Source: a virus (Duplodnaviria; Heunggongvirae; Uroviricota; Caudoviricetes). From it: a stretch of 61,195 nucleotides of DNA. The stretch lies in the IMG/VR virus record IMGVR_UViG_2523533514_000007; one strand, 5' to 3'. The position numbers were made by a program. Positions 15,001 through 18,000 of this stretch are shown here, piece after piece. How positions within the stretch are numbered: position 1 is the first letter of the stretch; each line of letters begins with the position of its first letter.

Positions 15001-18000
15001 CATGTAAATACCGTTGGTGCTTTTTAAGGGCGAGAAATTATTACTTAACTGATTTTTAAAGTGATTTATTTTTTAAGGGGGCAGATAACAGGAGGGGATA
15101 TGCAAAGAAAAACCCGGCGCATGGGCCGGGCTATTTATCTGGTCCTGTTCTCATTCAGTAGAGTAGGGGCCAAGAAATCGCACTCCGTTGAAGTGAATAA
15201 GATGAGAAGGTGCATCAGCCACCCATACCTCTGTTTCCCATGCGATTTCACCAAGATATCGCCCCATGATGGAGCGATTTGGAAAAGCGGTCACATAGAC
15301 AAGTCCGGCTGTTGATCCGGCAAACAGCCTGGCAAGCTCAGCATGCCGCTTCCCATCAACCGGTCCATGACTGGTGACAGACTCAACCAGTAGCAGCCAG
15401 TTTTTCGCAGTAAAATGTAGCACCACATCTGGCATTTTACCGTGTGAATCCACATCAACACCTAGCCCGGCCAGCAGTGGAGCGTCGAAGTAGCCCCACT
15501 TTTCGCCAGTGTCGCCAGCATAGACCAGCACGCTACCCGGAGCAAAACGTGGGGCGAAGTCCTCTATTATGGCACGGATAAGTTCGCTGTGCTCGCCGGG
15601 ACTGAGGGTTATTTGCTGGCCCGCAGCAATTTCAACAGGGATACGATTCTGTTCGCGCTCCTTAGCATAGCGGGTAACCAGCGTTTCACGCTCGGCTAAA
15701 TAGGTTGCAAGGCTATCGTGCCATGCCGGGCTGCCGAAAGTGCGTAGCATGGACAGAGCAGCAGGTTCGATCTGATAAACAGCCTTCGGGCTGTTCACTG
15801 GGCGATCGGGCTTGTCCGGATTGTAGAGGGCTACTCCAGCAGCGCAGAACTGATGCATAGACTGGCGGCGGAATGTCTCACGAGTATTGGGTGCGTAGAC
15901 CTTGCCGTAGTGCTCCCGAACCCAATTCATGATTGGTGTAATGCCCACAAGCGGATTTTCCGCGTCGGCCCATGCTTTTCCCGGTGTGAGGTTCAGGAGT
16001 GCCAGCAAACACAAAGCAGAACGCTCATTCTGCTGCGCTCTGGGCAGGCCTAAGGATGCTATAATTTGCTGAGCGGCCTCAATATAATCATTTTGGTTGT
16101 TCATGCAGTCAGAGCTCCTAGCTTAGCGTCAATATGTTCTTGCGTGAGAGTTTCTTGTTGCATAGCCCACTTGCCAAGCTCTATCAGAGTGTCACGGCTT
16201 GGGTACTTAATCATCTTGAGGTCGGTTGCATTGACCTGTGTATGCCCGTTGAAGCGACGGAAATACTTATCCACTGCGGTAGTGTTCAGGAACACGGCCA
16301 AGCCACGGGCCAGCGCCTCGGGTAACCCATGTTTGTTCTCATGAAACACGTTCATGTGATTTTCAAATCCCAACACTGAATACTCACTGAAGGTAGCAGG
16401 ATCAACGACGCTTGCTACCACTCGGCGCTTTTCCTCCTTCGACGAGAAACGACGCACCACACAATAAAAACCGTTCGGGTAAAGCCACTTTTCTGTCTCG
16501 TCGTTGCGCATGATTGCGTTGGGTTTCTTCAAACCTTCCACAGGCCAGACAGTGCTACTCATACTCAAATGGCTCGGGTAGATCAGGGGAACAGTTCCTT
16601 CTTCTGGCATGCTGCGCAAATGAGCTTTCAGTCGGAAATCAACTATCGGTCCGGTCGATACCTTCACGCCAATATCAGCCAGCGAACATTGTACGGCAGA
16701 TGATAACTCAATGGTGCTTTTCTCGAGCGTGGTCGGCACATGAATAAACCGCTCCGAATCGTCCGGGTACACAATCTGGTCAAATGGGTGTTCGTAGGTG
16801 ACTAGGTCAAAAAAGCTATCATCGGTCGAAGTTGTGACTGTAACAGCCTCCTGACGGCCTCCACGCTCCAGGCGGATGATAATATTTTCCTGCAACACAT
16901 CGTCATCCCTGAAAGCTTTGCTACGTGATTCGAACAAATGAATATGGCGGATTGCTGCCCGCTCAAGTATGAAATTACGGAACGGACGGTAATACGGTCC
17001 GTTGCAGAAACTACGTGGGATTATGGCCACTATCTGCCCGCCAGGTGCAACCTCACCTACAGCCAGTGCAACAAAGGCGGAATACAGATTTACCGTCTCG
17101 ATACCGACAGTGCGAAGAGCCTGCCGGTGGGCTGACTGGCTATTGATCTTCTTGTAAGGCGGATTAAGTATTGCATGGGTATAACCTCGATCCTGTAGAC
17201 CTTCGGCGGTTGCCAGCTCAATATAATCCCCTTCGATGATGCGGGGCGTCACTCTCCTGTACCCGGTTAAGTGCTTCGCAAGGTGACCACACAGCTTTTT
17301 GTCGATTTCGTAGGCTGTTGCCTCGACAGACTCAAAGCCAAACTCGCCAACCAGCCAACGGTCGAGGAAGGCGCAAGACAGTGCGCCTAAACCAGCGCCT
17401 GCGTCCAGTAGACGGCAAGTTTTCATTGTGCTCGGTGGAAACAAGGAGGCCATAAAACGGGCCACGCCAGAAGGCGTCATGAACTGGCCGAACTCTGCTT
17501 TGTGTTTACGCGCGGTACGGGGAGACAGCTCGCGACGCACGCTGTCTGCGACGTCTAGCTTTTGAAGCATAACTAATCCTCTTTACGTGGCATGATGATG
17601 CCAACGTGCTTTTGACATCCTCCACATTCTTCAGGCGTGAAGGATGTCAAATCACTCTGTGAGCTCAATCAAAAGTCTCATCATTCCACTGCGATTTGAT
17701 GACCTTTCCGACAAACTGGCAGTTTTCGTTACACTCAATCATGTCGAATCGTGGGTTGAGCGGCTCCAGGTACGCTTTACCGCTCTCACGAATGAATCGT
17801 TTGAAGGTAAATTCATCGCCGTTCATTCGGGCCACGCAAAAATCGCCATCCTCGATTTCCCGTTCAGGGTCAACGAGTATCAGCATACCTTCAGGGAAGC
17901 TGGGTTTACCACCCTGCGGTGCGGTCATTGAATGCCCCTTGACCTCCAGCCAGAACGACCTGTCACTGGCTTTTGTGGTGGTGGAGATCCATTTAATCGC

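Follow-up and report, generated by a model that had tools for sequence, protein, structure and literature searches.

The stretch of DNA analysed here is the IMG/VR virus record IMGVR_UViG_2523533514_000007 of the Caudoviricetes, comprising 61,195 nucleotides and hereafter called the window. The locus in question is a pair of genes lying directly beside the repressor gene cI on the same strand. An earlier note on this DNA, made from the sequence alone, had described the pair as a type II restriction-modification (R-M) system, consisting of an N6-adenine methyltransferase (MTase) and a translationally coupled gene for the restriction endonuclease (REase), and had placed it in the position that is occupied by rexAB in lambda. 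Both open reading frames (ORFs), the MTase motifs, the ATGA overlap, the adjacency to cI and the hairpin terminator are all present where the note had put them, as seen from ORF calls, a reading of the sequence and a terminator scan. The three genes that define the locus are the following.

17665–18378, minus strand: cI-type repressor with a helix-turn-helix (HTH) and an S24 autopeptidase, 237 amino acids (ORF call, Pfam and PHROG)
16101–17570, minus strand: M.EcoGIII, gamma-class N6-adenine DNA methyltransferase, 489 amino acids (ORF call, Pfam, PADLOC, PHROG and motifs)
15151–16104, minus strand: R.EcoGIII, type II restriction endonuclease of the BsuBI/PstI family, 317 amino acids (Pfam, PADLOC and PDB)

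A type II R-M pair identical to RM.EcoGIII

The translated MTase contains the motifs FGQFMTP (residues 27–33), LLDAGAGLG (about residues 53–61) and ILNPPYKK (residues 134–141, with NPPY at 136–139). This order of motifs X, I and IV, followed by a C-terminal target-recognition region, fits a gamma-class N6-adenine MTase. The protein is matched by the PADLOC model MTase_II PDLC03227 over residues 1–489 (5e-248), by phrog_1600 (DNA methyltransferase, E value of 0) and by the Pfam domain Eco57I (3.3e-09; 37.5 bits versus a cut-off of 25.3). The REase is composed of an N-terminal winged helix-turn-helix (wHTH) domain, PF17728 or BsuBI_PstI_RE_N (1.2e-54; residues 7–143, covering profile positions 3–139 of 140), and a C-terminal nuclease domain, PF06616 or BsuBI_PstI_RE (4.6e-61; residues 155–307). 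In addition, it matches PADLOC REase_II (1.6e-168) and aligns end to end with the structure of SdaI (PDB 2ixs; residues 8–315, E value of 1.2e-77). Full-length matches of the pair in Pfam, PADLOC and PHROG, with E values of 1e-54 down to 0, are far beyond chance. The combination of a gamma-class N6-adenine MTase with a PstI/BsuBI-type REase, which had been predicted for the pair, is thus borne out by Pfam, PADLOC and the alignment with SdaI, and the gene at 15151–16104 does have endonuclease homologs, namely PF17728, PF06616 and SdaI.

The two genes are joined by the stop/start overlap ATGA at 16104–16101, in which the TGA of the MTase gene runs into the ATG of the REase gene, and Shine-Dalgarno (SD)-like sequences precede both genes. 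With the MTase gene directly upstream, on the same strand and overlapping, the pair forms a type II R-M operon in which translation is coupled and the MTase comes first. Two further profiles, PADLOC PDLC03359 (840 positions) and PHROG phrog_1639 (838 positions), span the MTase and the REase as one polypeptide; hence, the two proteins are fused, or annotated as fused, in some genomes.

At the DNA level, window positions 14900–18700 are 100% identical to the Escherichia phages P13374, P13803, phiON-2011 and TL-2011c, and 74 phage records are at least 99% identical over this interval. On the chromosomes of the E. coli O104:H4 strains C227-11, 2011C-3493 and HUSEC2011, the R-M interval itself (15100–17650) recurs with 100% identity, and the match in C227-11 (NZ_CP011331.1) extends over 2,551 nt in a single place. 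Among 5,426 complete E. coli genomes, 139 contain a match to the interval, always on the chromosome, and 134 of these 139 cover at least 80% of it. Window positions 548–25000 correspond to these phage genomes from their first base, with stx2A downstream of the locus; hence, the window represents a prophage preceded by about 547 nt of host flank. The DNA identity to the C227-11 locus and the residence in a Stx2a prophage identify the pair as RM.EcoGIII. Locus, prophage and position beside cI all coincide with those in C227-11, and no difference exists at the sequence level. The locus is therefore very probably RM.EcoGIII, a PstI-isospecific type II R-M system in the cI cargo slot of a Stx2a-converting Oslovirus prophage of O104:H4 and related E. 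coli that make Shiga toxin (STEC).

PstI from Providencia stuartii and BsuBI from Bacillus subtilis are the prototypes of PF06616 and PF17728 and, hence, belong to the same two-domain REase family. They differ from EcoGIII in host and mobile context, the EcoGIII copy being cargo of a prophage immunity region. Whereas the PstI genes are divergently transcribed, the EcoGIII genes stand in tandem, MTase before REase, with the ATGA overlap. The specificity for CTGCAG, with N6-methyladenine (m6A), is common to PstI, BsuBI and EcoGIII according to the literature (PMC6602927, PMC3893438). A PstI-like system with this specificity on the Stx2 prophage of O104:H4 had been mentioned in the earlier note, and this link holds, given the 100% DNA identity to P13374, phiON-2011 and C227-11.

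M.EcoGIII was described as the MTase borne by the Stx phage of C227-11 and encoded together with its cognate REase (PMC6602927). As related there with reference to Fang et al. 2012 (Nat Biotechnol 30:1232), CTGCAG is both the methylation and the cleavage site of RM.EcoGIII, lambda-like phages are warded off by the system, and about 1,900 genes are affected by it. For O111 lysogens whose MTase has 99.7% similarity, m6A was found at 2390 of 2390 CTGCAG sites (PMC6602927). The account in PMC3893438, again citing Fang et al. 2012, holds that cloned M.EcoGIII is specific for CTGCAG and that the C227-11 REase is biochemically active. Furthermore, a plasmid with the EcoGIII R-M genes in recipient cells lowered the conjugation of pESBL (PMC4288162). 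Identity and function of the pair are effectively settled. According to these papers, M.EcoGIII places m6A on the CTGCAG sites of the chromosome in the lysogen, and R.EcoGIII cuts unmethylated incoming CTGCAG, by which lambda-like phages and conjugating plasmids are restricted. Owing to the ATGA overlap, synthesis of the REase would depend on ribosomes that have just finished the MTase, which would favour methylation before cleavage. By likeness to other type II R-M systems, loss of the pair may in addition be penalised by post-segregational cutting, and the prophage may thereby be stabilised.

This last step touches on the question of what the pair is mainly selected for. Selfish maintenance by host addiction and/or epigenetic rewiring of host expression, instead of defence, is a rather doubtful answer. 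Type II R-M pairs reportedly act as addiction modules, as is said of EcoRI and PaeR7I in the work of Kobayashi and colleagues, and relatives of the REase with 70–91% protein identity are spread over at least 598 species-level genomes of many phyla, as would be expected of a mobile selfish unit. Deletion of RM.EcoGIII altered expression for over one-third of the C227-11 genes, as stated in bioRxiv 10.1101/375352 and PMC6602927 with reference to Fang 2012. Against this stand the experiments in which lambda-like phage (in the account of PMC6602927) and plasmid transfer (PMC4288162) were restricted, and the statement in the relevant passage of bioRxiv 10.1101/375352 that no compelling correlation between methylated sites and changed genes was seen. 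Moreover, defence and the selfish or epigenetic roles are not mutually exclusive. RM.EcoGIII matters, as it rides on the Stx2a phage of the O104:H4 strain behind the major outbreak of 2011, shapes the entry of phages and plasmids and re-marks the whole host methylome. Its publication dates from 2012, lineages of O111, O145 and O157 have since shown it again, and its confirmation in this window adds no new biology.

Probable position in the immunity region and proposed transcription

The R-M pair is surrounded by the elements listed below.

17611–17651: 15-nt inverted repeat, TTTGACATCCTCCAC / GTGAAGGATGTCAAA, with 11 nt between the arms (repeat search, RNA fold and backbone homology)
17571–17611, minus strand: cassette leader with the SD sequence AAGAGGA and the small hairpin GGCAT-CATC-ATGCC (blastn and alignment with related cassettes)
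15106–15132, minus strand: intrinsic terminator that closes the block of cI and cargo (terminator scan and backbone homology)
14980–15100: putative oL/pL (promoter and operator scans)
18383–18426: operator-like 17-mers of oR, TATCACCTTTGGTTATA and TATCTGCGGTGTTGACA, overlapping the predicted rightward promoter (dyad and half-site scan)
~18438–18677, plus strand: cro, divergent from cI (Pfam Cro, 4.8e-34)

The repressor is matched by Pfam Peptidase_S24 (9.5e-29) and HTH_3 (8.2e-10) as well as by phrog_4, transcriptional repressor (1.6e-60), and it is annotated as cI in the records of P13374 and phiON-2011. In the region of cI and cro, a rightward promoter-like site, TTGACA-17-AATGAT, is located at 18421–18449. 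The clearest dyad of this region, TATCACC-TTT-GGTTATA at 18383–18399, served as the operator model, and a second operator-like 17-mer of oR lies at 18410–18426. On the other side of the R-M pair, immediately beyond the terminator, three 17-mers (14982–14998, 15006–15022 and 15084–15100) score 11, 9 and 10 of 14 and overlap a predicted leftward promoter, TTTACA-17-TATATT, at 15008–14980. A score of at least 9 is reached by 0.26% of the window positions, and about 0.6 such sites are expected in that 245-nt interval. With operator-like sites on both sides, the R-M pair appears to lie within the immunity region, between oR and the putative oL/pL. A search for shared operators by exact words was abandoned in favour of the half-site and dyad model, as the long words that oR has in common with the sequence to the left of the R-M pair occur only at chance level.

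The spacer between cI and the MTase gene extends over 17571–17664. A consensus scan of its minus strand reveals neither a sigma-70-like site of at least 9/12 nor a terminator-like site. Past the REase gene, the minus-strand terminator scan finds a stem at 15132–15111 with eight pairs, of which six are G-C, followed by TTTTTCTTTG. The ATGA overlap, the spacer free of promoters and terminators, the terminator after the REase gene and the flanking operator-like sites together favour an operon architecture. In the lysogen, transcripts that start at the cI promoter or promoters would accordingly run on into the R-M pair, in the manner of lambda cI-rexA-rexB. The complete methylation of CTGCAG in lysogens (PMC6602927) bears on this only indirectly.

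The likeness to lambda is one of layout. In both cases, a cargo that protects the lysogen lies directly downstream of cI and on the same strand, with no terminator intervening and a terminator closing the block; as in lambda, the EcoGIII cargo would also lie between oR and a putative oL. Lambda Rex is an abortive-infection system, and transcription of rex from pRM is established. EcoGIII, by contrast, is restriction-modification and has neither sequence nor mechanistic kinship with Rex; no homology to RexA or RexB was found in Pfam, NCBIfam, PADLOC or PHROGs, where only R-M families are matched. The rexAB-slot architecture that had been proposed for the pair is borne out by the position, the putative operators, the spacer scan and the sibling cargos described below. 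The relation is one of position and probably of regulation, not of descent.

The spacer also contains the inverted repeat at 17611–17651. It forms a long RNA stem without a U-tract in either direction, and the spacer RNA folds with −37.3 kcal/mol (z = −3.3). The repeat is kept in F039 and in L083 and L085, sibling prophages that carry something else in the slot. Across siblings, it is retained beside three different cargos, and the cargo begins directly past its 3′ arm. The repeat could be an element of RNA processing or stability, or a recombination boundary. It was also considered as a former cI terminator whose U-tract was lost upon insertion of the cassette; this idea was dropped, as the siblings with other cargo lack the U-tract as well.

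Some points weigh against joint transcription within an immunity region. The very stable spacer hairpin could attenuate or process the transcript of cI and cargo, a consensus scan may overlook a promoter that is weak or not of the sigma-70 type, be it in the spacer or in the 3′ end of cI, and the operator assignment is built on a motif from one oR site. In addition, the literature searches found no transcript map of cI, MTase and REase genes. An autonomous pair, for which the place next to cI would be just a tolerated insertion site and which would be driven by a promoter of its own within the spacer or within the 3′ end of cI, is nonetheless improbable. Own promoters are common in type II R-M cassettes, a perfect TTGACA exists in the spacer (17648–17643, minus strand) and the conserved spacer palindromes could be regulatory sites. 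However, this TTGACA has no matching −10 element at a distance of 16–18 nt, and no site in 17571–17664 reaches 9/12. In the nearest relatives, the MTase ATG follows the stop codon of an upstream gene by only 9–17 nt, and three unrelated sibling cargos are all oriented like cI and share one backbone terminator. The cloned EcoGIII plasmid is functional (PMC4288162), which would speak for autonomy unless a vector promoter contributes.

The cargo slot and the origin of the cassette

Compared with the consulted papers on RM.EcoGIII, the boundaries of the slot, the backbone origin of its terminator, the sibling cargos and a resolvase relic are mildly new. On the cI side, homology of the phage backbone ends at window position 17611 (or, in one sibling, at 17651); on the other side it ends at 15129–15130, a boundary taken from the siblings L083 and L084, which lack the R-M pair. 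These limits define the cargo as 15131–17610 and assign both the inverted repeat and the terminator to the phage backbone instead of the R-M cassette. The hairpin terminator that had been seen to end the pair is, thus, present, but it belongs to the phage; it is the equivalent of an immunity-region terminator. The resulting order is cI, the conserved hairpin, the cargo, the backbone terminator and oL/pL, herein with a cassette of 2.48 kb.

The R-M pair accompanies this cI in every phage record that has it, and in 134 E. coli genomes the pair is contiguous with cI. A few genomes possess a cI of about 98% identity without R-M. In STEC1585 (L083, 2721–3458, minus strand), the slot is occupied by a 245-amino-acid ORF with neither a Pfam nor a PADLOC match. 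Strain 2018-166 (L084; 2004–3418, minus strand, and 1298–1887, plus strand) contains a 53-amino-acid membrane protein, a serine protease of the SDH/Clp fold and a 56-amino-acid ORF, followed by hicAB. A decayed locus is found in strain G6/7 (L085, 3052–3354), where a 100-amino-acid C-terminal REase fragment stands beside the same cI and unrelated sequence lies between the hairpin and this fragment. The F039/Lyz12581Vzw lineage, finally, has the R-M pair plus two extra genes, which in F039 (L002, 2855–3705, minus strand) encode a protein with a SocA/Panacea domain and a 126-amino-acid partner. None of the sibling cargos is matched by PADLOC, and in Pfam they yield only SDH_protease and SocA_Panacea.

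Every cargo that adjoins cI shares its orientation, and an operon of cI and cargo closed by a single backbone terminator would fit this layout. One may go further and regard the interval from hairpin to terminator as a dedicated, exchangeable cargo bay of Oslovirus-type Stx phages, in which the cargo is expressed with the repressor operon, the hairpin acts as a recombination or regulatory boundary (for instance, by setting the dosage of the cargo relative to cI through RNA processing or stability), and EcoGIII was acquired from a resolvase-linked unit. We put this forward tentatively and would not expect all of it to hold. If it were true, the sibling cargos would be new lysogen-protecting genes; as they stand, they are possible, and reasonable, candidates for such functions.

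The R-M cassette itself belongs to a family that extends well beyond this phage. In 78 of 78 related loci with both genes, the MTase gene is located directly upstream of the REase gene on the same strand, and near none of these 78 is this cI found. Hence, the MTase-first coupling was inherited with the cassette and did not arise as an adaptation to the phage. The earlier note had singled out this gene order as the safe one for R-M establishment; the order is indeed there, as a trait of the whole cassette family that is not specific to the phage.

DNA homology to other cassettes is confined to the two genes; in the closest ones, as many as 41 nt ahead of the MTase gene are shared as well. By blastn, homology to Serratia reaches position 17611 and that to Herbaspirillum 17605. 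In Serratia nevei, a Pseudomonadota metagenome-assembled genome (MAG) and an Acidiphilium MAG, the same nucleotides form the 3′ end of a gene for a 191-amino-acid serine recombinase (Resolvase plus HTH_7, as seen in the upstream ORF of L008, 1378–1953). L008, L013, L046, L007 and L015 all possess the same leader. In the corresponding frame, the phage leader reads KHVGIIMPRK compared with the resolvase C terminus KHVGVITPRQ*, with seven of ten residues being identical. The relic comprises only ten codons and has an E value of 1.7 alone, which weighs against the assignment; it becomes convincing only by its exact homologous position. The leader at 17571–17611 is, thus, probably the remnant of a serine-recombinase gene from a resolvase-M-R unit, to judge from these alignments. 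The cassette would have come from such a mobile unit, with only the final ~40 nt of its resolvase gene being left. The small leader hairpin, GGCAT-CATC-ATGCC in the phage, reads GGCGT-CATC-ACGCC in Serratia and is an 11-bp perfect stem in Herbaspirillum (L007). In the closest cassettes, it is the stop codon of the recombinase gene that precedes the MTase ATG by 9–17 nt. A dedicated promoter would not fit into this gap, which suggests that the cassette never had one directly upstream of the MTase gene.

The REase active site and the neighbouring sequence

SdaI shares with R.EcoGIII the N-terminal wHTH recognition domain, the C-terminal nuclease domain and the PD and E catalytic positions. It recognises 8 bp, CCTGCAGG, compared with 6 bp for EcoGIII. 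P225-D226 and E241 of the REase align with P232-D233 and E248 of SdaI and are invariant in 79 relatives. The position of SdaI Lys251 is taken by Thr244: where SdaI has E-A-V-K, EcoGIII and 78 relatives have E-S-V-T-S-H, and the string E-S-V-T-S-H-G-P is invariant across the 79 relatives. The invariance of Thr244 marks it as a family trait and gives no sign of decay. Three lysines, K202, K223 and K252, each invariant in the 79 relatives, are candidates for the role of the lysine in the catalytic motif.

An inactive or decaying REase beside a solitary methylase was considered, as Thr replaces the PD-(D/E)XK lysine of SdaI, the lineage does show decay in strain G6/7, where only the C-terminal REase fragment is left, and the locus bears a pseudogene-style note in ArgO145; it was dropped and can practically be discounted, since purifying selection has kept Thr244 and the residues around it as the norm of the family, and the published activity and restriction by the identical REase refute decay for this allele.

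The window contains 12 CTGCAG sites over positions 1–61195, all within 21468–48877 and six of them within 38310–42547; the early region and the R-M genes are devoid of the site. Self-avoidance was examined as a cause and rejected. The count is mildly low relative to shuffled sequences (18 ± 3.9) and a Markov model (22), which is not significant, and a CTGCAG-free gap such as 1–21467 has P = 0.07 for 12 random sites, with 14 other 6-bp palindromes being absent there too.

Just left of the putative pL, three RNAs score above the Rfam gathering score on the minus strand: the Hfq-binding RNA isrK (14563–14638, 61.8 bits), the C4 antisense RNA (14451–14538, 77.4 bits) and sRNA-Xcc1 (13532–13615, 79.6 bits). 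A Rha/Ash regulator (13749–14534) follows, together with genes annotated as antB in phiON-2011. This set resembles the immI-type module of P1, where an antirepressor is under the control of an antisense RNA. Positions 14713–14900, from the putative pL to isrK, are 93–94% identical to phi80, HK225 and a Klebsiella phage and are a widely shared early-left leader segment.

On the cro side, the mechanically called ORF begins with GTG at 18438, and the annotated starts vary among public records. The −10 element of pR ending at 18449, a GGAG SD sequence and the Pfam Cro match over residues 15–73 suggest that the real start of cro is an ATG about 12 codons further in. A 65-amino-acid ORF at 14806–15003 on the minus strand, whose start coincides with the −35 element of the putative pL, is matched by neither Pfam nor PHROG and is not annotated in phiON-2011; it is unlikely to be a gene. 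Around its ATG, 16 nt resemble the 16 nt at the start of cI (GGTATTTACATGAAAA versus GGTATGAACATGAAAA).

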